From contig CAXXOU010000004.1 in the NCBI GenBank assembly GCA_963677495.2, positions 1,376,001-1,440,000 of the forward strand: a stretch of 64,000 nucleotides of DNA, in the 5' to 3' direction. Below are positions 7,529 to 54,387 of this stretch, one piece after another. The notes beneath the pieces were generated by a model. That model ran no database searches. It was not told the DNA's origin and saw only the letters and a list, made by a program, of their open reading frames with translations. The DNA is from Candidatus Cloacimonadales bacterium (GTDB lineage Bacteria > Cloacimonadota > Cloacimonadia > Cloacimonadales > JAFGVF01). Position numbers and translations under genes: made by a program. Each line of letters opens with the position of its first letter. The first letter of the stretch is position 1.

Positions 7529-7598
7529 CAACGGGTAAACGACGGGTTGACCACGGCTCCCGTGGATTAGGCGTGGTTTACCCGTGGTTCATCTGTGG
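7529..7598. repeat. 11-bp-period palindromic array, CACGG/CCGTG family, copy 1
   Basis: Cores at 7530, 7541, 7552, then inverted at 7560, 7571, 7582, 7593; homologous to 33269-33340. Confidence 0.85.
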
Positions 7599-7612
7599 TT
7601 GGAAATCTTTCT

Positions 7613-7664
7613 GGAGTTAACCGACTACTTGTCAGGACATAGCTTCAAACAAAACAAAGACTTA
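7613..7664 (+). repeat. GGAGTT..GTCAGG intergenic box
   Basis: CTACTTGTCAGG and CAAAGACTTA shared exactly with 40482-40529; similar to 25300-25348. Confidence 0.7.
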
Positions 7665-7690
7665 GGTCGGTTTATCTGCCCACATAAACT

Positions 7691-7736
7691 CGGACTTACG
7701 TCGCAGCGATAACGTGACAGTGACGCAAGAACGAAA
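7691..7736. repeat. GC-rich dispersed module
   Basis: Reverse-complement homolog of 44906-44945 (CGGACTT.CGT.GCAGCGATA.CGTGAC...GC.AGAACGAAA) with a 6-nt insertion. Confidence 0.75.
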
Positions 7737-7840
7737 CTGGCTTCTAGTTGTCGGAATTAGCGATTCCCACTTTGTTGTGTGTGTGAATCACTTCTTCCTT
7801 AGTCATCAAACATCTACAACTCTTCTGCGATAACACAAAC

Positions 7841-8044
7841 TTTAACTAAACTCTTTATCAAAACGCAGACATCCCACTGTTTTCCCACTGTGCACGCACT
7901 GTGCACCCAGTGAAACAGTGGGTTGGCAGTGCCTTCACAGTGCGTGCACAGTGCAGACACAGTGCGTTGGTAGATAGAGTAGTAAAAGAGTGTGAATAGG
8001 GCAATAAATATAGCTAAGTTATTGCAAAAGGCACTGTGTATGTC
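7841..8044 (-). repeat. ~200-bp dispersed element with 11-bp-period CACTG/CAGTG array, copy 1
   Basis: Cores at 7875, 7886, 7897, 7908 | 7916, 7927, 7938, 7949, 7960; inverted homolog of 25503-25704 and 44951-45136. Confidence 0.92.
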
Positions 8045-8123
8045 TACGATAGCTGGAGTCATAGTAAAAGTGTCAAAAACACAACGTTATGACTCAAATG
8101 TTGAAAGTTATGGCATAGACGAT

Positions 8124-8462
8124 TTATACTTTTAACTCAACCCACGTATCTATAGCTCTTCTAAGATGCGGAATTACAATTGAACCACCGACTATGAGAG
8201 CTACATTTAAAGTCTCTATTACTTCCTCATCAGTTACACCTTCTTGCATACATCTATCCAGGTGGTACATGATGCAATCATCGCATCGAAGGACAGCAGA
8301 AGCAACTAACCCAAGCATCTCTTTTGTTTTTTCAGCTAGAGCACCCTCTTTATAAGTATTTGTATCCAAGTTAAGAAAACGTTTGGTTGTCTTATTTCCA
8401 TACTGGTCTAAAAGCTTATTAAGTCTTTCTCTTTCCACTCTAAAAGCATCAATTTTATTCAT
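8124..8462 (-). CDS. Carboxymuconolactone decarboxylase/AhpD family protein
   Basis: GAL..KTKEMLGLVASAVLRCDDCIMYH (CxxC..YH) motif. Confidence 0.85.
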   Translation of the reverse strand: MNKIDAFRVERERLNKLLDQYGNKTTKRFLNLDTNTYKEGALAEKTKEMLGLVASAVLRCDDCIMYHLDRCMQEGVTDEEVIETLNVALIVGGSIVIPHLRRAIDTWVELKV

Positions 8463-8589
8463 AGTATTGCTCCAAAAGTAATTTTTGATTATTTTATAGT
8501 TGACTATAGAGCAAAGATGATTTGTAAAGATATTTATGGACTAGAACTAAGTGAGAAATAGATAGAATTTTGATAAACATGGAGATACA

Positions 8590-10629
8590 ATGAGAAAAGT
8601 TATTCTATTATGCCTTTTGGCAGTAAGTTTGAGTGGTCTGTTTTCTGCAGAAAGCGAACTTTTTTACAGAACCCAAAGGTGGTTTGAGTTTAATCCATCT
8701 TCCCTACCAAATTGGATGACTCCGGAAGAATCAGCAAGAGTTGATGAAATTGGGCGTAACTTTCAGGAGACACCTCCCCCACCTGCACCTGTAAGAGCTG
8801 TTGCAGAATATGAACCAATGGATGCTGTTATGATTAGATACCCACTAGGTATCCCTGTTGATTTTATTGCGATGATGTCTCAAGAAATTGAGGTTATCAC
8901 TCTTGTAAGCAGTTATGAGCAGAGTAGCTGTAGCTCTACTTTCCAATCAGGTGGCGTGAATATGAGTAATGTGACTTACTTAAATACTTCCACTGACTCA
9001 TATTGGGCAAGAGATTACGGTCCTTGGTTTATTATGGATGGCAATGATGAATTAAGTGTTGTTGACTTCGTTTATAATAGACCTCGTCCAAATGATGACG
9101 AAGTGCCGATTACTTTTGCAAACACTTATGGTTTAAACCTATTTGGCATGAACCTTGAGCAAACAGGTGGTAATTATATGTGTAATGACCTTGGTGTTGC
9201 TGCACAAAGTCATATTGCATATACTGAGAATGGGAATAATCAAGCAAATGTTGATAATCTGATGCAACAATATTTAGGCATCACTGACCTTCATGTGATA
9301 CAGGACCCTAATAACACATATATTGATCATATAGACTGCTGGGGTAAATTCTTAGCACCGGATAAAGTACTTATCAGAAGTGTTGCACAATCTCATGCTC
9401 AATACGATGAATTGGAAGAAGTAGCTGCTTACTTTGCAACTTTAGATTGTGGTTGGGGATATCCTTTCGAAGTGATTCGTGTTTATACTCCGAATGACCA
9501 GCCATATTCAAATTCTCTTATTTTGAATAATAGAGTTTTTGTTCCTATTACAGGCAGTTCACATGATGCTGCTGCTTTACAGGTTTATGCTGACGCTATG
9601 CCCGGTTATGAAATTAATGGAATAGTGAACAATACATGGAATGGTTGGGAATCAACAGATGCCCTTCACTGTAGAACTCACGAGCTTGCTGATGAAGATA
9701 TGCTCTATGTTCAACACATACCTTATTTTGGTGAGCAACCTTTTGCTCCTATGACATTTGAAGCTTATATCTACCCATATAGTGGTTCTGCATTGTATGC
9801 AGACTCTTTATATGTTGAGATAGTACAGCCAGATAGCCCAACCCGAATGATGTACCCTTTAACTCAATTAAGTGGAAATGTTTATACTACTCAAGAGTTC
9901 TATCCGGAGCCTGGAGCAACATATCAATATGCGATTCATGCAGCTGATGAATCAGGTCGTTCAGCGAGTCAACCAATAATGGGTTTAACAGATCCACATG
10001 AGTTTACAACTGAAGCGGATCAAATAGCCCCCAGTATTGTTCATACTGCTCTAGAATCATCTGATGATACGGTTTTACCTTTACCAATATCTGCTGAAGT
10101 TACAGATAATTACCAGGTTCTCTCAGTGTACATGGAATATGAGATTGGTGGTGAAACTAGTATATTATCGTTAGTTAATCAGGGAAATGATACATTTAGT
10201 GCTGACTTTAATCATGACTCCACAGGAACATTCAGTGTGAGTTACAGAATTGTTGCTGAAGATGGTACTAACACAACTTACTATCCTGAGGGTAGATGGT
10301 ATAACTTCACAATTACATCAACAAATAATGAAGATAATCTACAGGTAATTGCAGCAAACTCCTTTGATTCTGTATACCCTTCACCAGCACTATTGAATTC
10401 AAGAACTGTCACCTTAAAATACAGCTCAGATTCAGAGCCTACATTTACTGTTTTCAACGTGAAAGGACAGAAAATGAAGACTATTACAGGGTCATACGGT
10501 AAGAATCAGAGCTCTGTGAACTGGGATTTAACAGATACTAACAACAAACAAGTTCCATCTGGGATTTACTTCATTCATATGAAGAATGCAAACTTTAAAG
10601 CTACAACTAAATTACTCGTTATAGAGTAG
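8590..10629 (+). CDS. Secreted agmatine/peptidylarginine deiminase family enzyme with C-terminal sorting domain
   Basis: Signal peptide; AEYEP, WARDYGP, GGN, HID, LHCRT motifs; C-terminal YP...FNVKGQ...WD...SGIYF. Confidence 0.85.
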   Translation: MRKVILLCLLAVSLSGLFSAESELFYRTQRWFEFNPSSLPNWMTPEESARVDEIGRNFQETPPPPAPVRAVAEYEPMDAVMIRYPLGIPVDFIAMMSQEIEVITLVSSYEQSSCSSTFQSGGVNMSNVTYLNTSTDSYWARDYGPWFIMDGNDELSVVDFVYNRPRPNDDEVPITFANTYGLNLFGMNLEQTGGNYMCNDLGVAAQSHIAYTENGNNQANVDNLMQQYLGITDLHVIQDPNNTYIDHIDCWGKFLAPDKVLIRSVAQSHAQYDELEEVAAYFATLDCGWGYPFEVIRVYTPNDQPYSNSLILNNRVFVPITGSSHDAAALQVYADAMPGYEINGIVNNTWNGWESTDALHCRTHELADEDMLYVQHIPYFGEQPFAPMTFEAYIYPYSGSALYADSLYVEIVQPDSPTRMMYPLTQLSGNVYTTQEFYPEPGATYQYAIHAADESGRSASQPIMGLTDPHEFTTEADQIAPSIVHTALESSDDTVLPLPISAEVTDNYQVLSVYMEYEIGGETSILSLVNQGNDTFSADFNHDSTGTFSVSYRIVAEDGTNTTYYPEGRWYNFTITSTNNEDNLQVIAANSFDSVYPSPALLNSRTVTLKYSSDSEPTFTVFNVKGQKMKTITGSYGKNQSSVNWDLTDTNNKQVPSGIYFIHMKNANFKATTKLLVIE

Positions 10630-10648
10630 AATTTAAACTTATATATTT

Positions 10649-10673
10649 GGGCAGTTTATACTGCCCTTTTTTT
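10649..10673 (+). terminator. Intrinsic terminator
   Basis: GGGCAGT/ACTGCCC stem + T7. Confidence 0.85.
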
Positions 10674-10779
10674 GTATATGTTGAATCTTCATTTCAAAAT
10701 TACATAAAAAAGCTTGATTCTTATCATTTAACTATGCATAATGACATTATATTACTAACTCGCGATCATAGGGGACTAA

Positions 10780-12093
10780 ATGGATGCATATATTGCTATA
10801 TGTATAGCACTGATTTTTATTGATATTGCTCTTCTTTATGCTCTTTCTAAAATGAAAAAGGCAAACAAAGAGCTATCCGATAAGATAATTAAACTTACCG
10901 GACACATGGGATCAGATTCAGATCTGCAGATTCCGGAAGCATCGGATGCACAACAAGCACGAAAACTGGAAATACTTGGTCGCCTAGCTATAGGTATCGC
11001 ACATGATTTCAATAATGTACTTCAAGTTATAAATGGGCAATCTGAGTTAATGTTAAACAAGTTTTCTGACCAACCTGAAGTGATAAAGAACCTTCATACT
11101 GTTATTATAGCAGGTGAAAAAGGTGCTTCACTTGCAAGGCAATTATTAGTATTCTCCAGAAAAAAAGAGACTGAGCTAAAACCGGTAGATGTTAATGATG
11201 TAATAAAACCTATGAAAAAGATGCTTGAAAGAGTGATTGGTGAAAACATTCGATTAAATGTACAATTCAACCCCAGGTGTAGTATGGTGATGGCTGATGA
11301 AGTACTTATTGAAGAGATTCTAATGAATCTTACAGTTAATGCTCGTGATGCTATGCTGTTTGGTGGAAATATCACAATTAAAATCGAGGATATACTACCC
11401 GATAAATCAGTGGTTGCGAGAATAACTGAAGCTGAGCATATAAACTATCTTCGATTAACCATTCAAGATGAAGGTGAAGGCATACCAGAAGAGATTCTGG
11501 GAAACATATTTGATCCATTCTTCACTACGAAAGCAGATGATAAAGGTACAGGACTTGGTTTAGCAACTGTATATGGAATCACCCGACAGCTAGGAGGATT
11601 TATTGATGTTGTATCTAAACTTGGTATCGGTACTACATTCCATATTTACCTACCGGCTACTGATGAACGACGTGACATGGAACTAAACTTCCCTACAGAA
11701 GATGAGGTTTGTGTAAATAAAGATAAGAACATTCTAATCCTTGAAGATGATGCCATGGTCAATAAGTTAATCAATGACGTTATCTCATGTGATGGAATGA
11801 ATGTATATAGTGTTTATGATATTGCAGAAGCAACTGCAGTCTATGAGGAGCGAAAAGATGAATTAGACTTAATAATCTCTGATATTATACTTCCGGATGG
11901 AAATGGACCGGAGTTTGTTAAAGGTCTAATCGAAAATGGTATGGATCTTCCATTTATCCTTATTAGTGGTTACACAGAAGATAAGTTGCAGGTTGAAAAG
12001 ATTATTGATAAGGAACACTATTTCTTACATAAGCCATTTACAGTTCCGGATTTGAGAAACACTGTAAACAAAGCTTTATCACAGTCAGATTAG
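10780..12093 (+). CDS. Hybrid sensor histidine kinase/receiver (CckA-like)
   Basis: GIAHDFNNVL H-box, NARDAM, DPFFTTK, GTGLGL, C-terminal REC domain; single N-terminal TM. Confidence 0.9.
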   Translation: MDAYIAICIALIFIDIALLYALSKMKKANKELSDKIIKLTGHMGSDSDLQIPEASDAQQARKLEILGRLAIGIAHDFNNVLQVINGQSELMLNKFSDQPEVIKNLHTVIIAGEKGASLARQLLVFSRKKETELKPVDVNDVIKPMKKMLERVIGENIRLNVQFNPRCSMVMADEVLIEEILMNLTVNARDAMLFGGNITIKIEDILPDKSVVARITEAEHINYLRLTIQDEGEGIPEEILGNIFDPFFTTKADDKGTGLGLATVYGITRQLGGFIDVVSKLGIGTTFHIYLPATDERRDMELNFPTEDEVCVNKDKNILILEDDAMVNKLINDVISCDGMNVYSVYDIAEATAVYEERKDELDLIISDIILPDGNGPEFVKGLIENGMDLPFILISGYTEDKLQVEKIIDKEHYFLHKPFTVPDLRNTVNKALSQSD

Positions 12094-12096
12094 TTG

Positions 12097-13068
12097 TTAT
12101 TTACCCCTTAAAACTGTCCTGATTTTACTTCTAATCAATTTGTTAACTGATTGTAGTATGTTTCTCTTTGTTCTAATCTGAGCTATTGCTGTTTCTTTTG
12201 ATTGATTATTCAGCAAATCATTATAAACCTCCGATAAACCGGCAAATCTATACCCCTTACTTTTGCAGTACTTGATAAAGTCATGTAGTTTCTGAATATC
12301 ACCTAAATCAGGCTTAAACTGCGTATAAGTCGGGTTCCACTTAATAAGAGAATAACTATGAAGAAAGAGAGTGACATATTTCATCCCACTAATATTTAAA
12401 GCGTCTACTGCAAGTGTTAACTCCTCTAATGAACAGCTGTCAATATCCAACTTCTTCATAAGTGTTCTTTGTTTTATAGAAAATGGACCAAACTTGTAAT
12501 TTATACTATTATTGAATACGGTAACAGGGAACTCAGTAACTCTACCTTGTTGAGAAAGAATGTTTGGTTTCATGTTTTCAATTGAGCAATTTCTATGATT
12601 TGGAAAGAATGATGAATCCAGATGAATGCCAAACTCGGTCATGACTTCGAGAGTTGCGTTATTAGCGCCATAACCACCAGCTCTGAAGGCAATCGGTTTT
12701 ACCTTAGTAGTTTCCCTCATCTTCTTCAGAGATGCTTCAAATATGCATCTTTGCTCATCAAAAGAGTAATCTCGGAGCAGTGGTCTTTCAGCATCTAAGC
12801 AAAACTGTGGGTGAATATGTAGCTGTATATCACTTCCTTGCTCTAGAATGCTATAATTGAGCTTAGAAAACTTGTCATTAGAATGACCAATCTCGGCAAA
12901 ATCGACAAAGAAACTTCCATGGATATTATGCTCTGAGAACACATCAAGTATTCTTGGCACTCCATAGCTTTCCTTCCCGATTTTACCGAGAATCAGTCTA
13001 TCAAAATCTCCTAATCTTGTAAGCGATCTAATCGCTTCTACATCTATTGTTGGTATGATTGTTAGCAT
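12097..13068 (-). CDS. Polysaccharide deacetylase family protein
   Basis: TIDVE, QLHIHP, FRAGGY, DSS, LFLHSYS motifs. Confidence 0.75.
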   Translation of the reverse strand: MLTIIPTIDVEAIRSLTRLGDFDRLILGKIGKESYGVPRILDVFSEHNIHGSFFVDFAEIGHSNDKFSKLNYSILEQGSDIQLHIHPQFCLDAERPLLRDYSFDEQRCIFEASLKKMRETTKVKPIAFRAGGYGANNATLEVMTEFGIHLDSSFFPNHRNCSIENMKPNILSQQGRVTEFPVTVFNNSINYKFGPFSIKQRTLMKKLDIDSCSLEELTLAVDALNISGMKYVTLFLHSYSLIKWNPTYTQFKPDLGDIQKLHDFIKYCKSKGYRFAGLSEVYNDLLNNQSKETAIAQIRTKRNILQSVNKLIRSKIRTVLRGK

Positions 13069-13820
13069 TTCTTTTGAGCAATCAGAAGATATCCAGTTGT
13101 AAAATCTGAATCATATTCCAGTTTATCTAAGCTGAGTAGTATATATATTAATACATTTAACCAGATTGGTGCAAGAAGAGCTCTTAACAGAATTACCAGG
13201 CTTAAGAGAAGATATCCGATTTTAACAAAACCCTTACTCTGTCTGGTTTTGCTAATCACCCATGCCATTTTTGTTCTTATGAATCTCTTCTTTAGTCTGG
13301 CTTGCATTGCGTAATAACCACCCAATGGCACAGCTTTTATCGAAGTAAATCCGTTTTGTTCAGCTAGTAATTTCAGACCATATTCTGTTGTCCGCCAATA
13401 ATTATCCGGTGCATTCCATATTGGATATAGAAAATCACTAGATAGGAAAAGATAACCTTTTGGTTTTAGGACTCGATTTATCTCTTTAAAGAATTCATGC
13501 ATGTCTTTAAATACTGGTAAAACCTGAAAGTTTAAAACAGAATCAAAAGACTCATTTTCAAAAGGAAGTTTAGTTCCATCATTGCAAATGACATCTGTAT
13601 CAGAAGGTAATTTATCCAAATTACTATAATAATCTTCTGAATTAGTTCCGATCATAGTATCAACATTCTTAAACAGTTTTTGATATGGTTTCTTTCCACA
13701 ACCAATATCAAGTACTTTACCGTTTACCAAGTATTGATTCTTTTTTATTGCAGAACCCAATAGATGGTGGAATGTTTGGAATATCCACCTATCAACGAAA
13801 CTATAATATAGTTTTCTCAT
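13062..13820 (-). CDS. Class I SAM-dependent methyltransferase
   Basis: VLDIGCG, LPF.NESFD.V, RVLKP.G. Confidence 0.85.
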   Translation of the reverse strand: MRKLYYSFVDRWIFQTFHHLLGSAIKKNQYLVNGKVLDIGCGKKPYQKLFKNVDTMIGTNSEDYYSNLDKLPSDTDVICNDGTKLPFENESFDSVLNFQVLPVFKDMHEFFKEINRVLKPKGYLFLSSDFLYPIWNAPDNYWRTTEYGLKLLAEQNGFTSIKAVPLGGYYAMQARLKKRFIRTKMAWVISKTRQSKGFVKIGYLLLSLVILLRALLAPIWLNVLIYILLSLDKLEYDSDFTTGYLLIAQKKC

Positions 13821-13932
13821 TAACTCTCAAATTATATAACTTTAAAATACATACACTAATCTGTACAAGCATTTTGTACTTGAATTCTTTTATCAATCTC
13901 ATCATCCAATAACTCTCTAGTAATAATTTGAT

Positions 13933-16686
13933 TTAGCGAATTATAAGCAGTTTTTTTATCAAGCTATTTTTTCCATCTTTATATTTGTAGAAATAGATGC
14001 CTGAAGCAACTTTCTCATTTCTGTCAGATAAGCCATCCCATTTGTAAGAATTTTTTCCAGCTAGATAATCAGTATTCACTCTTTTAACTAGTTGTCCTCT
14101 TAGATTAAATACTTCTAAGGATGCTTGTGAGTTATTTTCTTTAACTGGCAGGATAAATGTCAATTCATTATCTAAACTCAAGTTGAAAGGATTTGGGAAA
14201 TGTGTGAGGCAAGTGTTGATCAGTTCTACATTCTCTGATAAAACTGATTGATTTACAATGGTTGCGATTATAGGATAGTAATCCAAATTAGTTCTGTTAA
14301 TCGACAAAGATTCTATAGCTATGTAAGTAGAGTCGAAAAATGTTTCACTACGTACTTGCATAACGACTTGACTCAATATTCCTGTTTCAGGTAACGGATT
14401 TATTCCAGCTGCTGTGAGGTATATTAGAGAATTTTGACTACTAAAAGAGTATTGCCAATTATCAGGGATATCGAATAGGTCAAATCTTTGAAAATCAAAC
14501 AGCTCATCATTATATGAAAGAATCAAATCAAGACTATATATACTATTCGATGCAGTGTATATTACAGGAACAGAAAAGATTTCAGTGTTCTCATTGACTT
14601 CACGATTTAGATGTAAGTATTCAATACTTTCATTAGAGATATCGAAGCACTCAGAGTTTGGTAATGAAGGAATAGTTTCGTTTATATAAGCACTCAAAGT
14701 TGCTGAATCATAAGCTGTTACATACTCATCAGTATCAACGTCAGCATTCTGTAACTGAACGTTTGTCAATTCTCTTGATCCAGAACATGCATCAAGTATA
14801 TACTGGCAATCAGATTCATCAAGAGAATAGTCAAGATTTACATCCCCAATTAAATCACTGTAAGATAATATTGCTCCATCAGAAGTATCATCAAAACTAT
14901 AAATCTCATTATAAGTGCCTTCAATGATTACACAATCTGTATAAGTACACTCAACATCAAGTCTAAAAATAAATGAAAAGATTGTATTTGATGTAATATA
15001 AACAGGATCACCGGACGCCTCTATTGTGACTATTCCATTAATATTGGAGACATCGAATGACCAGTTATTGTCAGTTAGCTCTGTATTAACTTCTGAGATC
15101 CCTAGATTAGTTAAAATGTTTTCCTCATATTGGACAGAAACATCAAAATTATCAATATAACAGTTCATATCACAGAAATCAATGTCCATTTCTGCAGTTT
15201 GACCAACTTGTACATTCTCTTCACTCAAGCTAACAGTTTTATATACTCTTCCAGATTGATTGAATCTGTGAAATGAGTTAACTGGTAATCCGGAATCTGT
15301 AGTAACTGTTCCATCTACCCACTCAATTACAATTGAATCTATTACTGTTGCTTGTCCAAGTCCAAAATGACTAACTATCGTATCTTGACTATTTCTACTT
15401 GATTGAACAAGAACTTTCCTCATTTGCCATTCAGAAGAGCCATCATCATCTGTATCAGCTAGAACCTTTATAATCGCACCAATACTTGTATACTCTCCAG
15501 GTATTTCTTGAAGAGGTATTTGTACCCAGTTATTGCTATTGCCAAGGTTACTATACAAGTTGTTCATCTCAGCCATTCCGGCATAACCGGCTCCACTAGA
15601 TTCAAAAAAGTCTAAACATCCATCATTATTGAAGTCTGCTACTGCCATTGAAATAGTAGGAAGGTTTGCTACATTAACTGATGAAGTAAAGTCTTCCATA
15701 TCAAATGTTCCATCTCCTTGATTCAGATAGAGATAGTTCTCGTATAAATTCCCAATTATTAAATCCAGCCAACCATTGTTATCAAAGTCTCCCCAACATG
15801 CTGTCCTAGAAAAGTTTTGTCCTGCAACAATATCAAAATCATTTGAAAGGGCAAATTGATTATCGTTATTTATAAGCAAATAGTTATCTGCATCCCCTGC
15901 AGCAGTTATGAATACATCTAAATCTAAGTCATTGTCAAAATCGGCCCATGTTGCTGAATTTCCACCTGGACATAATTCATATATAGTATGTTCTTCCGTA
16001 TATTCATATGTTCCATCAGCATTATTCATGAAAACAGCAGGTGGTTCATACATATTTTGAATGTATAGATCTTCGAGCCCATCAGAATTTAAATCAATCC
16101 ATGTACTACCATGCGTAGTGTAAGATGTATTCGAAAGTCCACATGAAAGATCTCGAGTAAAAGTTCCAGTACCATTATTTATGAAAAGTTGGTTGAAACC
16201 GGGTCCTAGGTCCCCAATAAACAAATCAATATCCCCATCGTGGTCAATATCACTCCAACTACAGCAATAACTTTGTTGCATGAAATCAAATTCTGAGCTT
16301 GTTAATGTATTCCAACTCCCATAAGCATACTGATATGCCAAGTAGTGAGGGGTGGAGTTCTCTGATAATAAGAGAATATCCATTAACCCATTACATGTAA
16401 AATCAGTTATTGTTCCCATGATATAAGGACCACTAACATTGCATAAGGGGTGGTCATTGTATGATGAGAAGTAGTTTCCATTGACATTCAGATAGATTTC
16501 ATTGTTTCTATCATTAAAATTGACAATTATCAAATCCTGAAATGTGTCATTATTGAGGTCACCCCAGGAACAACCTAATGAGTTTGAAGGTCTTGTAGAT
16601 ATGCCTAATGGTGTACGTTGAAAAACTTGTGCTTGCAAAACTACTATGAGCAGCTGGGAAACGACTAATAGAATTATTCTTTTCAT
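13933..16686 (-). CDS. Secreted FG-GAP/ASPIC-UnbV protein with cohesin-dockerin-cohesin-like modules and C-terminal sorting domain
   Basis: Multiple W.D.(D/N).DG..D repeats, HFGLG...I.W.DG, paired GDVN.D / ADVD.D loops, FPNPFN...SGIYFY. Confidence 0.75.
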   Translation of the reverse strand: MKRIILLVVSQLLIVVLQAQVFQRTPLGISTRPSNSLGCSWGDLNNDTFQDLIIVNFNDRNNEIYLNVNGNYFSSYNDHPLCNVSGPYIMGTITDFTCNGLMDILLLSENSTPHYLAYQYAYGSWNTLTSSEFDFMQQSYCCSWSDIDHDGDIDLFIGDLGPGFNQLFINNGTGTFTRDLSCGLSNTSYTTHGSTWIDLNSDGLEDLYIQNMYEPPAVFMNNADGTYEYTEEHTIYELCPGGNSATWADFDNDLDLDVFITAAGDADNYLLINNDNQFALSNDFDIVAGQNFSRTACWGDFDNNGWLDLIIGNLYENYLYLNQGDGTFDMEDFTSSVNVANLPTISMAVADFNNDGCLDFFESSGAGYAGMAEMNNLYSNLGNSNNWVQIPLQEIPGEYTSIGAIIKVLADTDDDGSSEWQMRKVLVQSSRNSQDTIVSHFGLGQATVIDSIVIEWVDGTVTTDSGLPVNSFHRFNQSGRVYKTVSLSEENVQVGQTAEMDIDFCDMNCYIDNFDVSVQYEENILTNLGISEVNTELTDNNWSFDVSNINGIVTIEASGDPVYITSNTIFSFIFRLDVECTYTDCVIIEGTYNEIYSFDDTSDGAILSYSDLIGDVNLDYSLDESDCQYILDACSGSRELTNVQLQNADVDTDEYVTAYDSATLSAYINETIPSLPNSECFDISNESIEYLHLNREVNENTEIFSVPVIYTASNSIYSLDLILSYNDELFDFQRFDLFDIPDNWQYSFSSQNSLIYLTAAGINPLPETGILSQVVMQVRSETFFDSTYIAIESLSINRTNLDYYPIIATIVNQSVLSENVELINTCLTHFPNPFNLSLDNELTFILPVKENNSQASLEVFNLRGQLVKRVNTDYLAGKNSYKWDGLSDRNEKVASGIYFYKYKDGKNSLIKKLLIIR

Positions 16687-25502: not shown

Positions 25503-25704
25503 TACACAGTGCCTTTACCAATTACTTAACTATATTTGCTGCCCTTTTTGCTTCCTTTCTCTGCTCTATCCACCAACCCACTGTGTTTGCACTGTGCACG
25601 CACTGTGAAGGCACTGTTATCGCACTGTTTCAGTGGGATCACAGTGCGTGCACAGTGGGAAAACAGTGGGTAAACTGCGTTTTGATTAATAGATTAGTTA
25701 AGGA
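25503..25704 (+). repeat. ~200-bp dispersed element with 11-bp-period CACTG/CAGTG array, copy 2
   Basis: CACTG at 25579, 25590, 25601, 25612, 25623; CAGTG at 25631, 25642, 25653, 25664. Confidence 0.92.
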
Positions 25705-25742
25705 GGGCAAAAACCGATAGGAACGAAAACAAAACTTATGTT

Positions 25743-32606: not shown

Positions 32607-32891
32607 ATTTATCCATGGAGTCATTGCTAGGTTCATCTGATTAAGGAAGTTTGCCGACTATTTCAGCACAGCAACTCAGTGAGTTGCATTACATGTAGGG
32701 AATGCAGCCTGCTTGCCCACAGCTCGATAGAGCTGTATTCCCCGCGACAAAACCTGATTATATTTTCTAAAGAACTTTAGTAATTTATACCAATTAACGT
32801 CAGTGGCAGAGCTTAGCTTCGCTAAGCGGACAAGCTGGCAGCATGTCCTACGGTTCGACGTGCAACGTCGATGTACTTCTCTGCCACAATT

Positions 32892-32975
32892 CCAATGAGA
32901 CACCTATTGAATGCCCGTTAGCTTCCCGTTAGATTCCCGTTACAGCAAATGGGTTTTGGATTGGTTTCTGATGGC
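32892..32975. repeat. 11-bp-period array, CCCGT family
   Basis: CCAAT 32892, CCTAT 32903, CCCGT 32914/32925/32936; inverted-type ATGGG 32949, ATTGG 32960, ATGGC 32971. Confidence 0.6.
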
Positions 32976-33268
32976 AAAGAGATACAAGTTAGATTTCTAC
33001 TAAGGCAGAGCAATTTATCGCTAAGTCCTCTTCTGTCCATCATGTCCACAAATCAGATAAAACCATACATATATCAGTCAATGATTGCAATATAATTACC
33101 CTCTCACTGCTCTATCATAATAAAGCATAGAAAACTGTCTGATTCTTGTAAGTCTCTTGGGGCTCCCTAGGGCAAAATCATTAGATACTGTCTTGAAAGG
33201 GAGTAGTATTTGATGGTATTATAATCCGAATTAAGATGGTCTGATGACAGGTTGATGTCTGATTCCCG

Positions 33269-33340
33269 ACCACGGGTTGACCACGGGTTAACCACGGCTC
33301 CCATGGTATGGGCGTGGTTTATCCGTGGTTATTGCGTGGT
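33269..33340. repeat. 11-bp-period palindromic array, CACGG/CCGTG family, copy 2
   Basis: CACGG at 33271, 33282, 33293; inverted cores at 33301, 33312, 33323, 33334. Confidence 0.85.
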
Positions 33341-33433
33341 AAGATATAGCAGAAGTGATAGAGAGATAGTAGAATTAATATCTTAATAAGTTGTATATGA
33401 ATAGATATTTGTTACTAAACGATTAGCTGTTTA

Positions 33434-44950: not shown

Positions 44951-45136
44951 GACATACACAGCGCCTTTTGCAATAACTTAGCTATATTTATTGCCCTTTT
45001 AACTCTCTTTTACTGCTCTATCCATCAACGCACTGTGTCTGCACTGTGCACGCACTGTGAAGGCACTGCCAACCCACTGTTTCACTGGGTGCACAGTGCG
45101 TGCACAGTGGGAAAACAGTGGGATAATTGCGTTTTG
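44951..45136 (+). repeat. ~200-bp dispersed element with 11-bp-period CACTG/CAGTG array, copy 3
   Basis: Cores at 45031, 45042, 45053, 45064, 45075 | 45083, 45094, 45105, 45116. Confidence 0.92.
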
Positions 45137-45352
45137 TCTAATGGATTGCATCAACTGCGTAGATGCAACTGCAAAATGACAGTAGAAGGAACACTATTTG
45201 AAAATATTACATTAACTAAGTCCTAACAGACAAACTGACACATTCGATTAAATCCATATTGTTGCCGAACAAGTTCATGACCTTTTATCCTTGACTATAT
45301 AAATGAGTAATATAATACTTAAGTTGATATAAATTAATATATGGAGGATATA

Positions 45353-46911: not shown

Positions 46912-48168
46912 ATGAAACGGCTACTGTTTATACTGGCTATAGCATTATTGTTAGTAGCCTGTCAGAACGATACAACAAACTCTAATAATGGAGATTTCAC
47001 TCCCAAGGAATTTGTTGCACTTGATGTAGATCCTGACTTTAATTGGAGTAATACAAGATATCTTACACTTGAAGTTCAGGGTGATGCCACACTTTTAGAA
47101 GGTAGAAAAGTTACTCTCGAGAATTTAACTCATAAAGTATCAAGTGCATTTATATATGATGGCACACATACTTTTACTGTTGAAATCCCAAGTGAGCTTA
47201 TAGCGTTAAATGTTGTTTGTGATGAGTTGGGCTTCAGTCAAACAATCTCAACTTCTGAGCAGAATCAGATTGTTACGATCTCAGGTACCCCACAAAATAA
47301 AGGACCTAAAGTTGATTCTGATGGAGATGGAGTTGATGATTTAATTGATGATTTCCCTAATGATCCCGATAAAGCAGTACTTATCAGAGTTCCTGCTGTA
47401 GATGAAGATTACTGGGTATTTGAAGACTTGTGGCCTGATAAAGGTGATTATGACTTCAATGACTTGGTTATCCGTGAGTATGTTGAGCTACATATGAGTG
47501 CGACTAATATGTATGTTGGGGGAAGAGCAAAACTATGGCTCAACGCCATTGGAGCGAACTTCCATAACAGTATATTCTTGCACTTCATGGAGGCAAGCCT
47601 TGTGGGTGGAGAGTTGGTCTTCAATGAGCTTGCTGACCCTGATTTTGTTAAAAGTATTGAAACTTATCTGCCAAATATAAGGATTGATGAATACACTCCC
47701 AATACTATCGGTGCCTGGTATGATATTGAGTGGGAGCATTTTGGTTACCAGAACAATGGTTATGGTCCTCAAGACCACCCACATTCAAGAGAGTTTAACT
47801 TCACATTTGACGAGACAGGCATCCAGCCATCTAATCTGACTTTTGAATGGTACTTATCAATTGGAAATGAAAGAGAAAAAGAGTTGCATCATCCTATGTT
47901 TGCACCTACTGCAATAATGAACACATCCTATTTTAATACTGGAGATGATGCTACTAATATTGCAACTGGTTTCTACTACAAAACTGCTCTAAATCATCCT
48001 TGGGTTGTTCGAGTTTACGGAGATTTCAAGAATCCGAAGGAGTTTGTACAGATAACTGAAGCCTATCCTCACTTCCAAGACTGGGCTGAATCAAATGGCA
48101 GTCTACATCCGGATTGGTATAATACTTACGATCAAGATAAAGTATTCGACGAGTATTCGGCGAAATAA
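46912..48168 (+). CDS. LruC/DUF4842-domain lipoprotein
   Basis: Lipobox LVAC; DSDGDGV.D..DDFP.D; FEDLWP..GDYDFNDLV; AYP.F..WAES.G....DWY. Confidence 0.75.
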   Translation: MKRLLFILAIALLLVACQNDTTNSNNGDFTPKEFVALDVDPDFNWSNTRYLTLEVQGDATLLEGRKVTLENLTHKVSSAFIYDGTHTFTVEIPSELIALNVVCDELGFSQTISTSEQNQIVTISGTPQNKGPKVDSDGDGVDDLIDDFPNDPDKAVLIRVPAVDEDYWVFEDLWPDKGDYDFNDLVIREYVELHMSATNMYVGGRAKLWLNAIGANFHNSIFLHFMEASLVGGELVFNELADPDFVKSIETYLPNIRIDEYTPNTIGAWYDIEWEHFGYQNNGYGPQDHPHSREFNFTFDETGIQPSNLTFEWYLSIGNEREKELHHPMFAPTAIMNTSYFNTGDDATNIATGFYYKTALNHPWVVRVYGDFKNPKEFVQITEAYPHFQDWAESNGSLHPDWYNTYDQDKVFDEYSAK

Positions 48169-48195
48169 GTCCTTTTAGCTACAGACATAAATGAG

Positions 48196-48223
48196 AAGCA
48201 CCCTGAAAAAGGGTGCTTTTCTT
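48196..48223 (+). terminator. Intrinsic terminator
   Basis: AAGCACCC/GGGTGCTT stem + T run. Confidence 0.8.
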
Positions 48224-48333
48224 GTTTACAGGAAATTAAAAAATTATTTATTGCTATAACTAATATGAAGGGTTTTATGATAATTGATGTCAGCAATCAT
48301 AAATAGATTATAATGTTTAGAGTGAGGTACAAA

Positions 48334-49668
48334 ATGCAAAAGATTTTATCATTAACTATAGTATTACTACTCATTATTTTGAGTATTAATGCTGAAACGA
48401 TTTCTTTGAATAAAGCTAAAGAGATCGCTCTTAAAAGTAATCCGGGATTAAGTGCACAGAAAGAGAGTTTAAAATCCTCCGAATGGAACTATAATAACTC
48501 GATTATCTCTCTTTTTCCATCAGGATCACTCAGTGCCAGTTATAGGCAAAGTGACCAAGAGTTCTCCAGCTTTGGGTCAACATACTCTGAAAGTGGCTCT
48601 TATGGCGTAAATCTTAGTCAGCCTCTGTTTATGGGTGGTAAACTCATCAATGCTGCATTGATTGCGAAAACAAGCAGGGATATCAGCAAAATAACTTTAA
48701 CCGATAAGGAACTTGAGATTCTGAATACAACTGAAACCAAGTATTTCTCATTAATAGAAGCAATGAATCTCTTAGAGATTGCTACTGATCAATTAACGAT
48801 TGCAGACCAAAGAGTGCAAGATTCCCAAACAAGATTTGCACAAGGCACTATTTCTAAAGCTGAACTCTTACAAGTTCAGGCTGATGCAGCAGATAAGAAG
48901 GTGAGTCTAATACAGGCACAGCTATCATATGATGTAAGTTATAAGGACCTAAAAAACTACTTGCTACTCTCTGATGATTTCGAAATTGATGTTGAGATTG
49001 ATGATAGCTTTGAAAGTGAAATAAGCGAGCTGAATATGATCGATTCGGTTAATATGGATACTTTAGTTGATAGGATTGTCACCTTCAGTAATTCAAATAG
49101 CAACACAATGAAGATGTTGGAGCTTTCAACTAGTATCTCAAAGACGAATGTTAATATGGCAGTTGGTAATTTTATGCCAACACTAAATCTTAGCTATTCA
49201 TATACTAATTCCGGGGATGCTCGCGAAGACTGGAGTGAATATCCTTGGTCATCAACACTGTCTGTGTCTGCATCTCTTCCAATATTCCCATTGGTTGATT
49301 CCTACTCAGATGTCCAAAAAGCGAAAGCAGATTACAGAAAAGCTGAATATGACTTCATTGATAGCAAAAACGGGAATGCTCTTGGAGTAGAATCTTCTCT
49401 TTTAAGTCTACTAAGCTCAGCGAGAAAGTATGAAGCATCAAAGCTTAGTCTTGAGTATTCAGAAGAAACTTTCAAGCAGATGCAAGCAAGATATAATAAT
49501 GGTCTCTTATCAAGTACAGATCTACTTGATGCTGAGGTTATGTATAAAAGTTCAAGAATGAATGCTGTAAGCAGTAAGTTCGATTATTTAAAAGCAAAAT
49601 CAACATTAAAAAAGCAACTTGGATTATCTGATGACAGCAGATTAATCTCAATGATTTTAGAAAAGTAG
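48334..49668 (+). CDS. TolC family outer membrane efflux protein
   Basis: Signal peptide, AL..NP.L, duplicated halves, RY..G...DLLDA; first gene of RND operon. Confidence 0.85.
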   Translation: MQKILSLTIVLLLIILSINAETISLNKAKEIALKSNPGLSAQKESLKSSEWNYNNSIISLFPSGSLSASYRQSDQEFSSFGSTYSESGSYGVNLSQPLFMGGKLINAALIAKTSRDISKITLTDKELEILNTTETKYFSLIEAMNLLEIATDQLTIADQRVQDSQTRFAQGTISKAELLQVQADAADKKVSLIQAQLSYDVSYKDLKNYLLLSDDFEIDVEIDDSFESEISELNMIDSVNMDTLVDRIVTFSNSNSNTMKMLELSTSISKTNVNMAVGNFMPTLNLSYSYTNSGDAREDWSEYPWSSTLSVSASLPIFPLVDSYSDVQKAKADYRKAEYDFIDSKNGNALGVESSLLSLLSSARKYEASKLSLEYSEETFKQMQARYNNGLLSSTDLLDAEVMYKSSRMNAVSSKFDYLKAKSTLKKQLGLSDDSRLISMILEK

Positions 49669-49676
49669 AGGTAAGT

Positions 49677-50765
49677 ATGAAAAGAATATTGAGTTTAGGA
49701 ATAGTACTCATTCTTCTCGTTGGTTGCGGTAAACCGGGAGGACGTAGTCGTGGTGGCAACATGCAAGGGAAACAGGATACTGTTTTGAAATCACCGGTAC
49801 TTGTAAATGAAGTAAAGAAGCAAGATTTAAAAGAATATGTTACTGTTAGTGGAACGCTTTCAGGTATTATCGATGTTACAATGATGAGTGAGACATCAGG
49901 TACAATTTTAGAAATATACAAATCATTAGGCGATTATGTTGAGAAGGGTGAAGAGATAGCTCTTCTTGATAATGACCATATAAGGATTCAATATGAGCAA
50001 GCACAAGCAAGTTTCTTAGCTTCTGAAGCATCTCTTGCAACTGCAAACGCTTCATTTAACTCCTCAGAGCAACTCTTCAAAGATGGTTCTATTTCAAAAA
50101 TGGAGTATGATAATGCAGTTGCTTCTCTCAAACAAGCACAAGCAGGTTTAGCTGGTGCAGAAGCTAATCTTGAAGCATCAAAACTTAGTTTTGAGAAGTC
50201 TAGATTAACAGCACCTGTATCAGGATATATTGCTTCAACTGAGTTAGAGATTGGAAACAATGTAACTCAAGGCACAAAGCTACTGACCATCGTAGATTAT
50301 ACTAAGTTAAAGCTAAAAACAGGTGTAAATGAGTCTGAACTGTTTTCTATCAAGAAAGGACAAGCAGTTACTGTTAAATCAGAACTCGCAAATCAGATGC
50401 TTAAAGGAAAGATTACCGGCATTGGTATGAAACCATTAACCAATAGCTCAACATACCCCATCGAGATTGAAGCAAACAACCCTAAAGGTAATTTTGCTCC
50501 CGGTATGGTGGTTGTAGGTGAGATTCTTTCAAAGACATACAGAAAACAGATCTATACTTCATTAAATCACATTCTTGATGATTATGGTAAGAAGTTTGTT
50601 TATGTGATAAACTCAGAAGATAAAGCTGAGAAACGCATTGTTGAACTTGGAAGTATAATTGATGAGTACGTAATCATTAAGTCAGGTCTTGCTGAAGGTG
50701 ACAGACTTGTAACAGAGGGTATGGAGATGCTTAATGAAGGTGCTCCAGTAGAGATTAAAGGATAA
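49677..50765 (+). CDS. RND efflux membrane fusion lipoprotein
   Basis: Lipobox LVGC, G..VEKG, AP.SG.I, PGM, SGL..GD..VT.G. Confidence 0.9.
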   Translation: MKRILSLGIVLILLVGCGKPGGRSRGGNMQGKQDTVLKSPVLVNEVKKQDLKEYVTVSGTLSGIIDVTMMSETSGTILEIYKSLGDYVEKGEEIALLDNDHIRIQYEQAQASFLASEASLATANASFNSSEQLFKDGSISKMEYDNAVASLKQAQAGLAGAEANLEASKLSFEKSRLTAPVSGYIASTELEIGNNVTQGTKLLTIVDYTKLKLKTGVNESELFSIKKGQAVTVKSELANQMLKGKITGIGMKPLTNSSTYPIEIEANNPKGNFAPGMVVVGEILSKTYRKQIYTSLNHILDDYGKKFVYVINSEDKAEKRIVELGSIIDEYVIIKSGLAEGDRLVTEGMEMLNEGAPVEIKG

Positions 50766-50771
50766 AAACAT

Positions 50772-53700
50772 ATGTCAATTGCAAAATTCTCAGTACGTAA
50801 CTCAGTGCTGATTAATATGATAATGATCATGGTTTTCATTGCAGGTATCTATGCAATGATACAACTCCCTAAGGAGGAGATGCCACAAGTTGAGTTTGGC
50901 ATGGTCGTTATCTCTGTTGCTTATCCGGGGGTCTCTCCTGCTGAAATTGAGCAGATGATTGTCACTAAGATTGAGGATGAGATTTCTGATATAGATGATA
51001 TAGATTACATCGAGTCTACTGCCTCTGAAGGATATGCTCTGGTTCGTATTAGCTTCGAGGCTGACGCTGATATGGATGAAGCATGGACAGATGTGAACAC
51101 TGAAATGGATAAAGTAAACGATCTACCTGAAGATGCTATGGACCCGGTTCTTATGCGCATCAATATGAAGGAAGTGAATGAGATCTGTTCAATTGTTGTG
51201 AGTGGAGACTTTCACCCAAACACAATGCGAGACATCGCTGATACAATGGAACAAGGTCTAACCAACATAAAGAACGTATCTAAGGTTGAAACCAGTGGTA
51301 CAAGGGAACGAGAAATCTGGATAGAGGGCGACATCGAGAAGCTGAATGCTTATGGTCTTTCCCTAGACAATATCAGCCAAACAGTAGGGGCAAGAAACCT
51401 CAATGTTCCCGGTGGTTCTGTTCAGTTCGGTTCTGCAGAGTTTATTATCCGTTCAATGGGTGAGTTCACTGATGTTAACCAGATTAAAGAGCTGCCTGTT
51501 ATGATGGATAGCTCCGGTAGAGCTGTAAGAATCAAAGATGTAGCCACTGTTGTAGATACATTAGAAGAGTCTTCAGTTATCTCTAAACAGGATGGTGCAA
51601 ACAGTATTACTATTGAAGTGTACAAGAAAGCTCAAGGTAACATCGTAACTGTTATGGAGAACGTGAGAGAGTATTGTGCTGATTTCGAACAGACTGTTCC
51701 AAACCTTAAAGTCACTGTTCGTGATGATGGTTCAATTGCTGTTAACAGTGCTTTACGCTCATTAGGTTCAAATGCAATGATTGGTATTATCCTTGTGTTT
51801 GTTATCCTAACTATCTTCCTCGGCTGGAGAAATGCCTTATTTGCTGCTTGGGGAATCCCATTCAGTTTCTTCCTCACATTTGTAATGATGTTCTACTTCG
51901 GTGTAACTATGAACAACCTATCACTCTTTGCTCTAGTACTGGTACTGGGTATGATTGTGGACGATGCTATCGTTGTTATCGAGAACTTCCATCGTTACAT
52001 GGAGATGGGTTACTCACGGAAAGAAGCCGCTATTCAGGGTACTGAAGAGATTATGTGGCCTGTCATAGCTGCTGTCCTCACAACAATTACTTCCTTCTCC
52101 CCTATCCTTATGATGGAAGGAATCATGGGACAGTTTATGAGTGTATTCCCACTCGTCGTAATGTTTGCATTAATGGCTTCACTCTTTGAATCATTAATAA
52201 TACTTCCATCCCATTTGGCAGAGTTAAGCCCAAAAACTTTAAGTAAAAAGAAAAAGGACAGTTTACACGATAAACTCGTTAAAAGATATAGATGCACTGT
52301 AACAAGAGTGCTTAAACACAGATTCTTAACTATCTTTGTTGTAGTATTTTTGTTAATACTATCAGCTCTCGCTCTTATGTTCAGAATGGTTAAGTTTGAG
52401 TTCTTCCCACGTAGAAACTCTGATACTCTTGTCTTGAAACTTGAGACTCCGGTTGGAACAAGTCTTGAGCAGACAAACGTAGTTGTTTCTGAAGTAGAGC
52501 AGTTTGTTGCAAGCATGGCTGAAGCATCAGATATAGAAGCAGTTATCTCCCAAATCGGACTCATTAAAGGTCGAGGTACACGTTCTACATCTTCTAATAA
52601 TGCCGAAGTAAAGCTTGATATGATTGATATTGAAGAACGTAACTTCGATGACAATGTTATTAAGAATAAGCTACGTAAGTATATGAAAGACCTGCCGGGA
52701 CTCTACTCCTTTAAGTTCGATCAAGAGAGTAAAGGTCCACCAACAGGTAATGATGTTGAGATTCGCATTACCGGTGAGAGCTTAGAAAGACTTGAATATA
52801 TCGGTGAATATATCAAGAATCAATTAGCACAAATACCGGGTGTAGATGATATAGATGATAGTTTTGCTCCCGGTAAGCAAGAGATTCAAATCTTACCATA
52901 CCAGGATAGACTCTCTTATTATGGTCTTACAGCAGCTTCTATCTCATCTGCAGTACGCGGTGCTTCAAATGGTTCTACTATCTCCATTTATCGTGGGGAC
53001 GGTACAGAAGAGTTCGATATTGTACTGAAAGCGAAAGAGTATCAGATTGATGACCTCAATGAACTTAAGAATATGAAGATACGCTCATCTAAAGGAGCTC
53101 TTATACCACTGAAAGATGTAGCTGAGTTCAAAGTAGAAAGCGGACTTAACCAGATTCAGCACTATGATACAGACAGATATATTACTATCACAGCTGCTGT
53201 TGGCACTTATATCGATGATAATGGTAATGCTCAAAGTCGTACAACCGATGAAGTACAAAAGATACTTGAAGGTGATAAGATTCGTGGTACTAAAGGTCTT
53301 TTAACAGACTTTAACAACAAGTTCCCGGGTTATTATCTCACCTATGGTGGTGTGAACAAGATGATGAGACAGTCATATAGTTCACTTTATCTAGCTTTCA
53401 TGATTGCTATCCTCGGAGTTTATACTATTCTCGCAACACAGTTTAAATCATATATTCAACCTCTCATCGTGATGGCAACTATCCCGTTTGCCTTTATCGG
53501 TGTAGTTCTTGGCTTGATCCTGACCGGTTTGCCATTCTCATTGAATACTCTGATTGCTGTGGTTGCACTAGTTGGAGTTGTTGTTAATGACTCACTCGTG
53601 CTTGTTGATTTCGTGAATAGAGAACGTGAACAAGGTGTTGATAGATGGAATTCTCTTATTAATGCAGGTGCACTTCGACTCAGACCAATTATTCTTACAA

Positions 53701-53972
53701 CAGTTACAACAGTTGGTGGTATGCTACCTATGATTTTCTCATCAGCAGAATCATCAGCTGACTACAAATCAATGGCTGTAAGTATAGTTTTTGGACTTAG
53801 TTTCGCAACCCTGCTCACACTGTTTGTTATTCCTACTATCTACTCAATTGTAGACTCCATCTCAGGAAGATTACATGCGAGTCGTTTTGGTTCACACATC
53901 AGTTTTAAAGATGCTGTAATCAATACTGATAAAGGTATTGAAAACATAGATAATTGTAAAACAGGTAAATAG
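50772..53972 (+). CDS. RND efflux permease (AcrB/AcrD/AcrF family)
   Basis: GMIVDDAIVVIEN, VVNDSLVL, RLRPIILTT; 12-TM layout. Confidence 0.93.
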   Translation: MSIAKFSVRNSVLINMIMIMVFIAGIYAMIQLPKEEMPQVEFGMVVISVAYPGVSPAEIEQMIVTKIEDEISDIDDIDYIESTASEGYALVRISFEADADMDEAWTDVNTEMDKVNDLPEDAMDPVLMRINMKEVNEICSIVVSGDFHPNTMRDIADTMEQGLTNIKNVSKVETSGTREREIWIEGDIEKLNAYGLSLDNISQTVGARNLNVPGGSVQFGSAEFIIRSMGEFTDVNQIKELPVMMDSSGRAVRIKDVATVVDTLEESSVISKQDGANSITIEVYKKAQGNIVTVMENVREYCADFEQTVPNLKVTVRDDGSIAVNSALRSLGSNAMIGIILVFVILTIFLGWRNALFAAWGIPFSFFLTFVMMFYFGVTMNNLSLFALVLVLGMIVDDAIVVIENFHRYMEMGYSRKEAAIQGTEEIMWPVIAAVLTTITSFSPILMMEGIMGQFMSVFPLVVMFALMASLFESLIILPSHLAELSPKTLSKKKKDSLHDKLVKRYRCTVTRVLKHRFLTIFVVVFLLILSALALMFRMVKFEFFPRRNSDTLVLKLETPVGTSLEQTNVVVSEVEQFVASMAEASDIEAVISQIGLIKGRGTRSTSSNNAEVKLDMIDIEERNFDDNVIKNKLRKYMKDLPGLYSFKFDQESKGPPTGNDVEIRITGESLERLEYIGEYIKNQLAQIPGVDDIDDSFAPGKQEIQILPYQDRLSYYGLTAASISSAVRGASNGSTISIYRGDGTEEFDIVLKAKEYQIDDLNELKNMKIRSSKGALIPLKDVAEFKVESGLNQIQHYDTDRYITITAAVGTYIDDNGNAQSRTTDEVQKILEGDKIRGTKGLLTDFNNKFPGYYLTYGGVNKMMRQSYSSLYLAFMIAILGVYTILATQFKSYIQPLIVMATIPFAFIGVVLGLILTGLPFSLNTLIAVVALVGVVVNDSLVLVDFVNREREQGVDRWNSLINAGALRLRPIILTTVTTVGGMLPMIFSSAESSADYKSMAVSIVFGLSFATLLTLFVIPTIYSIVDSISGRLHASRFGSHISFKDAVINTDKGIENIDNCKTGK

Positions 53973-53991
53973 TTTTACCTAAACTCAAAAC

Positions 53992-54025
53992 AAAAGGCTA
54001 CCATGCTTCGGCTGGTAGTCTTTTT
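53992..54025 (+). terminator. Intrinsic terminator
   Basis: AAAAGGCTACCA/TGGTAGTCTTTT stem. Confidence 0.8.
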
Positions 54026-54099
54026 CCTATTTTGAGGCATCATTATTCCTGTAATCACTACTCCCCTACTCCCATATTCTCCCCCCTTTTCTCTCTCAT

Positions 54100-54235
54100 T
54101 TCTCAGCAGTAATTCTTGGTAGACACTTGACAAACACCTGGCAAACCCTTGGCCTATTCTTGGCCTAATTACCAAGAATTTACTAACCTATCACCAAGTT
54201 AAAACCTGTTTACAATCACTAATTACTGCTGAGAA
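54100..54235. mobile_element. 136-bp MITE-like or invertible segment: perfect 15-bp IRs around an 11-bp-period CTTGG/CCAAG array
   Basis: TTCTCAGCAGTAATT (54100-54114) / AATTACTGCTGAGAA (54221-54235); mobility not shown. Confidence 0.5.
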
Positions 54236-54314
54236 CAGAATGAGTGTATTGGCATACATCAAAATGAAAATGCATTAATCAGTTACTTTGCTCCCTTTCA
54301 ACCCAAAGGAATCA

Positions 54315-54387
54315 TATGGGATTTTCTCACGATTATCACGGGAATTTCTCGGGCAAAGCCCCGGGAGATTCTCGCGTGTATCCCTTG
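54315..54387. repeat. Degenerate 11-bp-period array (CACGGG/CCCGTG-like)
   Basis: TATGGG 54315, CACGGG 54337, CTCGGG 54348; CCCGGG 54360, CTCGCG 54371, CCCTTG 54382. Confidence 0.5.

Follow-up and report, generated by a model that had tools for sequence, protein, structure and literature searches.

The intergenic DNA of Candidatus Cloacimonadales bacterium (assembly GCA_963677495.2) contains many short palindromic arrays, in which a short core word is repeated at 11 bp and is then replaced, past a centre, by its reverse complement. The arrays were followed up from a stretch of 64,000 nucleotides (contig CAXXOU010000004.1, positions 1,376,001 to 1,440,000; hereafter the window), and it was found that they form, together with a family of small proteins, a real and widespread system that is apparently undescribed and whose function we infer. 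Because most array types sit upstream of their own copy of the gene, an arrangement that recurs in Bacteroidota, the proteins likely bind the arrays and may spread them. We lean towards the view that the arrays are gene-less copies of an element that has its master copy immediately in front of a small gene, and that the encoded protein binds its own word and helps the element to spread. A full-text literature search gave no description of the arrays, a mention in a repeat catalogue being possible in the subscription papers and supplements outside that search; likewise, the accessible portions of PMC4060949 and bioRxiv 10.64898/2026.09.15.751765 contain no description of them.

Array families in the window and across the genome

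The earlier note had described at least eight intergenic arrays in the window, and the eight that it listed are present where it placed them (no strand is assigned to any). Near the start lie an F1 array at 7496..7628 (core CACGG/CCGTG, centre step 8), with C4:453465-453917 as its candidate partner gene, and an F0 array at 7836..8003 (core CACTG/CAGTG, centre step 8), whose candidate partner gene, C4:1447755-1448207, is located 7.8 kb past the window end. F0 occurs twice more, at 25540..25710 in the orientation opposite to the copy at 7836 and at 44992..45160, and a second F1 array at 33237..33375 lies 246 bp from an F6 array at 32861..32991 (core CCCGT, degenerate right arm). The F2 array at 54086..54246 (core CTTGG/CCAAG, centre step 13, outer inverted arms) has two candidate partner genes, C4:946147 and C4:1498355, and a degenerate F4 copy at 54277..54411 (core CGGGA/TCCCG) has one, C4:23735-24223. 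The centre steps given earlier for CACTG, CACGG and CTTGG were all correct. The array at 54315, taken earlier for a degenerate CACGG copy, is indeed an array but belongs to the CGGGA/TCCCG family, and for the array at 32892 the exact CCCGT cores exist but lie at 32914, 32925 and 32936, with no exact core in the right arm. The window contains 30 runs of a 5-mer occurring at least three times at lag 11, compared with 0–1 at lags 9, 10, 12 and 13, and a strict inverted-array detector found 5 arrays in it but none in each of six dinucleotide shuffles. An Rfam scan of the window at gathering score matched a tRNA only and none of the arrays. Other repeat families stand beside arrays at 7620-7760 and 45160-45200, and these also occur around the Y1 transposase genes of the genome.

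Profile searches of the 3.4-Mb genome gave 332 array copies in 17 clusters, some small families being merged in the clustering used. The largest families are F0 (CACTG, 67 copies), F1 (CACGG, 41), F2 (CTTGG, 40) and F3 (37), followed by F6 (CCCGT, 29), F5 (25), F4 (CGGGA, 24) and F7 (17). Runs of 5-mers at lag 11 occupy 241 regions genome-wide; lag 22 gives 92, and every other lag between 7 and 25 gives 4–54. In an earlier catalogue 271 of 273 arrays were intergenic. Outer inverted arms are present in F2, F4 and F5; in F5, F3 and F11 an inverted pair of TTATCCACA-like 9-mers stands in for one arm, and 87 of the genome's 154 perfect TTATCCACA 9-mers, which we take to be DnaA boxes, are inside arrays, nearly all of these families. 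In addition, arrays are located just upstream of boxes that are presumably promoter-like; the enrichment of such a motif upstream of the genes is weak (23/89 versus 89/795).

Geometry is conserved between families while sequence is not, as the earlier note had proposed; within families, however, the description fails, since linkers are about as conserved as cores in two of them. The column conservation across copies, for core and linker respectively, is 0.98 and 0.85–0.94 in the CACTG family and 0.88–0.89 and 0.84–0.88 in the CACGG family, whereas the looser families show 0.83–0.93 and 0.70–0.76 (CTTGG) and 0.84–0.86 and 0.66–0.72 (CGGGA). Copies within a family are thus near-identical, linkers included in F0 and F1 and less so in F2 and F4, so the linkers once called variable do vary within one array but are largely conserved across CACTG and CACGG copies. 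Linkers as conserved as cores had been named as an observation that would count against the proposal, and this is partly the case, in the two families mentioned; each family is thus a set of copies of one element. A scan of viral sequences with one pattern, CACGG, gave no hit, and a metagenome scan for the CACTG pattern gave 9 loci, mostly tandem satellites without a partner gene; a similar 11-bp CACTG dyad element was also seen on two apparently eukaryotic metagenome contigs (L140:1100-1330 and L141:1-330).

The partner gene family in Cloacimonadota and Bacteroidota

The earlier note saw no cognate protein gene in the window; this holds for the window itself, while candidate partners exist outside it for most words. 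When genes consistently adjacent to arrays were sought, as the note had suggested, clustering of the array-neighbouring genes brought out 22 related proteins about 150 amino acids long, of which 12 are encoded next to an array. An array lies no more than 800 bp upstream of 11 of the 22 paralogs, compared with 331 of 2271 other genes (P 9e-5), and none lies downstream (0/22). Within subfamily A, as split on a quick tree that also served for reading the ortholog and family clades below, 14 of 15 genes are preceded by an array at a distance of no more than 1.4 kb. The families found upstream of paralogs are F0, F1, F2 (twice), F3, F4, F5 (twice), F9, F11, F12 (twice), F13 and a TTGAT family, and the 12 upstream arrays scoring at least 40 bits belong to 10 different families (P 0.03). 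Partner genes are mostly single-copy per word and are under purifying selection (dN/dS, the ratio of nonsynonymous to synonymous substitution rates, about 0.04–0.2 in 8 pairs). Five divergent pairs of a subfamily A and a subfamily B gene enclose 4–8 kb of cargo (C1:774894-782349, C3:291415-297694, C4:777579-783024, C4:1465698-1474728 and C4:1498355-1504079); the cargo of the C1:774894-782349 pair differs in the related genome G001. Meanwhile, Y1/RAYT genes were considered as partners and rejected, since their flanks, listed for all but two genes and part of two more, carry other repeats; most Y1 loci with flanks listed (L001-L010 and others) lie among their own tandem repeats of the REP (repetitive extragenic palindromic) type.

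The partner gene was found in 28 of the 41 genomes searched, often in many copies. An inverted lag-11 array lies upstream of 23 of 70 homologs from relatives, downstream of 1/70, and with other lags the upstream count is 1–3/70; orthologs retain their array family in the F0, F2, F9, F11, F3 and F14 clades. As a test of prediction, arrays were counted in blind genome slices and their words were compared with those upstream of the paralogs of the same genome. G013 has 5 arrays in 200 kb, every word of which is also found upstream of one of its paralogs, and all 6 arrays in the G014 slice carry the word upstream of the partner gene at L035; G001 has 10 arrays in 400 kb. Taken by family, F1 has one weak match in G001, F2 has four and F6 has none. 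G024 and G031, in which no gene was found, have no array in 200 kb each, and the slice of G004, with one gene that lacks an array, also has none. The amplified homologs of G021 (L128-L136) and G027 (L118-L127) have longer and divergent C-termini, and a one-armed 11-bp CCTT motif is located upstream of several G027 copies.

Outside the phylum, the GTDB collection was scanned with a pattern derived from the word seen in G014, which gave 117 stretches; the 80 listed include 74 from 22 Bacteroidota genomes, and the remainder belong to Cloacimonas (3), Streptomyces (2) and Paracoccaceae (1). One Bacteroidota array lies 82 bp upstream of a gene encoding a DUF6266 protein (PF19781), a family for which the full-text literature searched holds 0 papers. 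Three of five Bacteroidota genomes examined contain 19 DUF6266 genes, of which 11 have an upstream array (9 arrays when only independent ones are counted, their words mostly different) and 0/19 a downstream one; other lags give 0–2. Similarly, a mixed N-terminal profile searched in the five genomes found 9 further loci in three of them, with an array upstream of 6 and downstream of 0. Besides the word used for selection, the words found are TACCT, TCGGT, ACACT, TTCGA, TCGGA, GTCTT and ACGTA. One DUF6266 gene in G052 (L138:340-960) has no array and follows an open reading frame that is integrase-like, as judged from sequence.

The partner family comprises 357 representatives at 50% identity. 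Searches of Pfam, PHROGs and PDB sequences with the partner protein gave nothing significant, none of 77 members reaches the PF19781 cut-off, nor does any protein of this genome (G000), and Y1_Tnp was found in 0/77. In the predicted model (pLDDT 93), residues 14–34 form three short strands, and helices follow. Foldseek gave no match at E 0.001 with either the whole model or its N-terminal 64 residues, and the best VIA Z scores are 3.9 and 2.9, respectively, with an AP2 domain at Z 2.2, values that do not imply a novel fold; about a dozen ribbon-helix-helix chains among 50 rows (Z 2.7–3.8) align in the helices only, which is noise level. G14 and Y72 are conserved in 99% of 240 homologs, R33 in 88% and D68 in 87%, and an HUH-like motif (H-hydrophobic-H) is found in 5/240; no longer or fused homolog of at least 285 amino acids was seen among 7996 candidates, which is weak evidence. 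Tyr72, Arg33 and Asp68 are candidate strand-transfer residues in the Cloacimonadota proteins only. The Atlas clusters near the N-terminus are unnamed or DUF6266 and mostly viral (scores 0.87–0.88), which serves as a lead only; from this lead, the profile match described below and the common DNA context, kinship between the Cloacimonadota proteins and DUF6266 through the N-terminus is weakly suggested.

Movement of units, proposed mechanism and alternatives

One array-plus-gene unit, of family F5, has moved: two F5 partner loci have 822 bp in common at 96.8% identity. The common stretch begins at the array's outer edge and stops 8 bases beyond the last codon, and the flanks are unrelated. Filled and empty sites, which the earlier note had proposed to look for at orthologous loci, exist between this genome and 400 kb of the sister species G001, where 5 of 144 syntenic gaps are filled only here, 1 only in G001 and 0 in both, with junctions too diverged for the element ends to be read. 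With arrays considered as synteny breakpoints, synteny is retained in 4/46 gaps with arrays versus 14/62 without. No excess of 5–8-bp flanking repeats over shuffled pairing was found as target duplication in 8 families, the ends used being profile limits and possibly off. Four contig sets from a single sample yielded no joint that could be used. Arrays of the same family avoid each other: 5 neighbours lie less than 10 kb apart, compared with 22.6 expected from label shuffling (0/1000 as low) and 27.8 from random intergenic placement, and among these five there is one case of a single array interrupted by an IS21-like element (IS, insertion sequence). This depletion holds in direct and inverted orientation, and none is seen, in small numbers, with the six probes used for other repeats. 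Arrays of different families, in contrast, cluster, since 46 of 319 gaps are shorter than 600 bp, all between different families.

Some insertion sequences stand in a fixed relation to arrays. Six identical copies of an element judged IS3-like from sequence each have an F2 array at 25–51 bp, always on one side (C2:142625, C2:235206, C2:359505, C3:93495, C4:221018 and C4:1237849), and this element apparently has target specificity near F2 arrays. The IS21-like element is inserted in the exact centre of an F0 array at C4:1304825-1307300. The ends of both elements differ from the array ends.

In the mechanism that we propose, there would be one partner gene per core word, and each paralog would read the word upstream of its own gene. 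The N-terminal three-stranded sheet and the long helix may read the word on one helix face, and protomers loading every 11 bp on both arms would build a symmetric nucleoprotein complex. At the array upstream of the gene, the complex may autoregulate the partner gene, by repression or activation, and the protein would also mark the gene-less copies; the complex could then drive or recruit a copying step and keep newly made copies of a family at a distance from existing ones. We prefer the reading in which this complex itself copies the array, on the basis of the moved unit, the family-specific exclusion and the invariant tyrosine. The earlier note had offered binding scaffolds or a class of non-autonomous elements divided into several specificity groups, and both parts gain support from the candidate cognate genes, the recurrence in relatives and Bacteroidota, and the filled and empty sites. 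More tentatively, and with less probability than not, the system could be a new class of mobile or domesticated element in Bacteroidota and Cloacimonadota, in which a word-reading protein polymerises, copies arrays by tyrosine chemistry and confers target immunity, with a dozen orthogonal pairs.

Several observations weigh against the proposed mechanism. In this genome, none of the 7 subfamily B genes is preceded by an array at up to 1.4 kb, the partner of an F8 array is a 5'-truncated pseudogene, and a partner gene was sought for F6, which is present in the window, and F7 but none was found. Other repeats are dense in the regions upstream of paralogs, and three partner genes stand beside Y1 transposase genes, so that hot spots could add to the association between genes and arrays. 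In G001, too, an F0 array precedes the ortholog of the gene downstream of the array at 45031, whose place is thus kept between species. Among relatives, G027 has 22 divergent homologs and no array in 200 kb, and an upstream dyad array is missing from 19 of the 20 longer homologs of G021, G027 and G040. The Bacteroidota genomes were picked for CCGTA arrays, which makes CCGTA a selected word; four Bacteroides genomes have one array site in common, G062 and G065 have arrays and no match to the N-terminal profile, and G063 has one weak match without an array. The N-termini of the Cloacimonadota proteins and DUF6266 match weakly in hhalign, at 23% over 55 columns (E 9e-4; 0.3% against one protein), the Cloacimonadota profile alone finds nothing in the 5 Bacteroidota genomes, and the alignment ends before Tyr72, so no common catalytic residue is established.

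The alternative that remains strong, even if we think it somewhat unlikely, is that the proteins are only sequence-specific binders, acting as autorepressors or nucleoid organisers, and that the arrays are spread by Y1/RAYT transposases, by hitch-hiking with IS elements or by recombination; their spacing would then reflect selection on chromosome organisation or against close repeats. It is consistent with the 14 Y1 transposase matches in the genome, three beside partner genes, with the single-copy genes under purifying selection, with the promoter-like boxes, whose identity is assumed, and with the residues shown to be common to the two protein families, which are limited to the N-terminal Gly and Arg. 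However, among the flanks listed the Y1 genes carry their own, different repeat families, and an 11-bp array stands right beside one gene only; the moved 822-bp unit runs from the array start to the gene stop, and the exclusion in inverted as well as direct pairs has no equivalent, on small numbers, in the six other repeats probed.

A second alternative, in which small plasmids, phages or integrative elements integrated repeatedly and left their origins or partition sites behind as the scattered units, is improbable. The presumed DnaA boxes in three families, the mostly viral Atlas clusters and the five back-to-back paralog pairs with enclosed cargo would fit it, but no match was found in 72,556 plasmids, the best in 50,697 phages has 27% coverage (E 0.5), no PHROG occurs in more than one of 77 members, and the short copies without a gene, which number in the hundreds and reach 97% identity, point to copying within the genome. 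The possibility that arrays act as single-stranded hairpins of RNA or DNA, like REPs or terminators, with the 11-bp period as a by-product of unit duplication, is more doubtful still: the consensus sequences of F0, F1, F2, F4 and F5 do fold into long hairpins (-46 to -55 kcal/mol) and compensated pairs are slightly in excess in F4 (62 versus 44, P 0.005) and F1 (33 versus 25, P 0.03), but uncompensated changes are 5- to 20-fold commoner, F0 shows no excess, F3, F6 and F7 fold weakly, arrays are not enriched between convergent genes (44/270 versus 116/809 gaps), no Rfam family matches, and all words, in both phyla, have a period of 11. The constant period with a changing word, the higher conservation of cores than of linkers in F2 and F4, and the weak compensatory pairing together favour recognition of duplex DNA, by a protein loading on the two arms at one protomer per helical turn.

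Relation to known systems and meaning of the finding

By its logic, the REPIN-RAYT system, in which a transposase gene is associated with REP-type repeats, would be the closest known analogue. In both there are many short, gene-less, palindromic intergenic copies, and several gene-family pairs occur per genome. The accessible part of PMC3337134 describes each short single-copy gene as tied to one repeat family, and here, too, one gene per repeat family accompanies many gene-less copies; REP-type repeats used as IS targets are described in the accessible part of PMC1525189, and here an IS3-like element stands beside F2 in 6/6 copies. Unlike RAYTs, the partner proteins lack an HUH motif and an IS200-like fold, and the genome's 14 Y1 matches are other genes. 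There is also one array, upstream only (downstream 0/22 here, 1/70 in relatives and 0/28 in Bacteroidota), and a 5–6-bp word phased at 11 bp with little compensatory pairing takes the place of a 20–40-bp stem-loop.

Iteron origins and the parC/ParR centromere of plasmid R1 likewise have helically phased direct repeats beside the gene of a small cognate protein, as found here, and word and protein co-vary, with DnaA-box-like 9-mers in three families in the present case. They differ in that the arms here are inverted around a short centre, hundreds of gene-less copies are chromosomal, no ParM/ParA or Rep gene is seen beside the units, and no ribbon-helix-helix or winged-helix match is significant (best Z 3.9). 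The outer inverted arms of F2, F4 and F5 resemble those of miniature inverted-repeat transposable elements (MITEs) and of IS ends with repeated transposase sites, and the exclusion over about 10–15 kb resembles the target immunity of Tn7, Mu and Tn3. Unlike MITEs and IS elements, the arrays show no target duplication in 8 families and the proteins no DDE or other known transposase domain, and the gene-bearing unit ends at the stop codon without a right end. The DUF6266 genes themselves have upstream 11-bp dyad arrays with one word per paralog, and in their products a long helix comes after a similar Gly...Arg motif at the N-terminus; the Cloacimonadota proteins differ from them in length (about 150 versus about 210 amino acids), in lacking a PF19781 match and in aligning weakly over 55 residues.

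The arrays are an abundant and apparently undescribed class of intergenic DNA tied to a specific protein family, and they offer a testable code of one word and one protein in two phyla, including cultured gut and soil Bacteroidota. For DUF6266, this gives a first concrete functional hypothesis. An influence on chromosome organisation or on the control of replication is suggested by the family-specific exclusion over 10 kb and by the DnaA-box-like 9-mers of three families. Specialists would find it surprising that one genome has a dozen orthogonal, helically phased scaffolds, even if the proteins do no more than bind; if the arrays are a new class of element, a function for DUF6266 and a natural set of orthogonal DNA scaffolds would follow.

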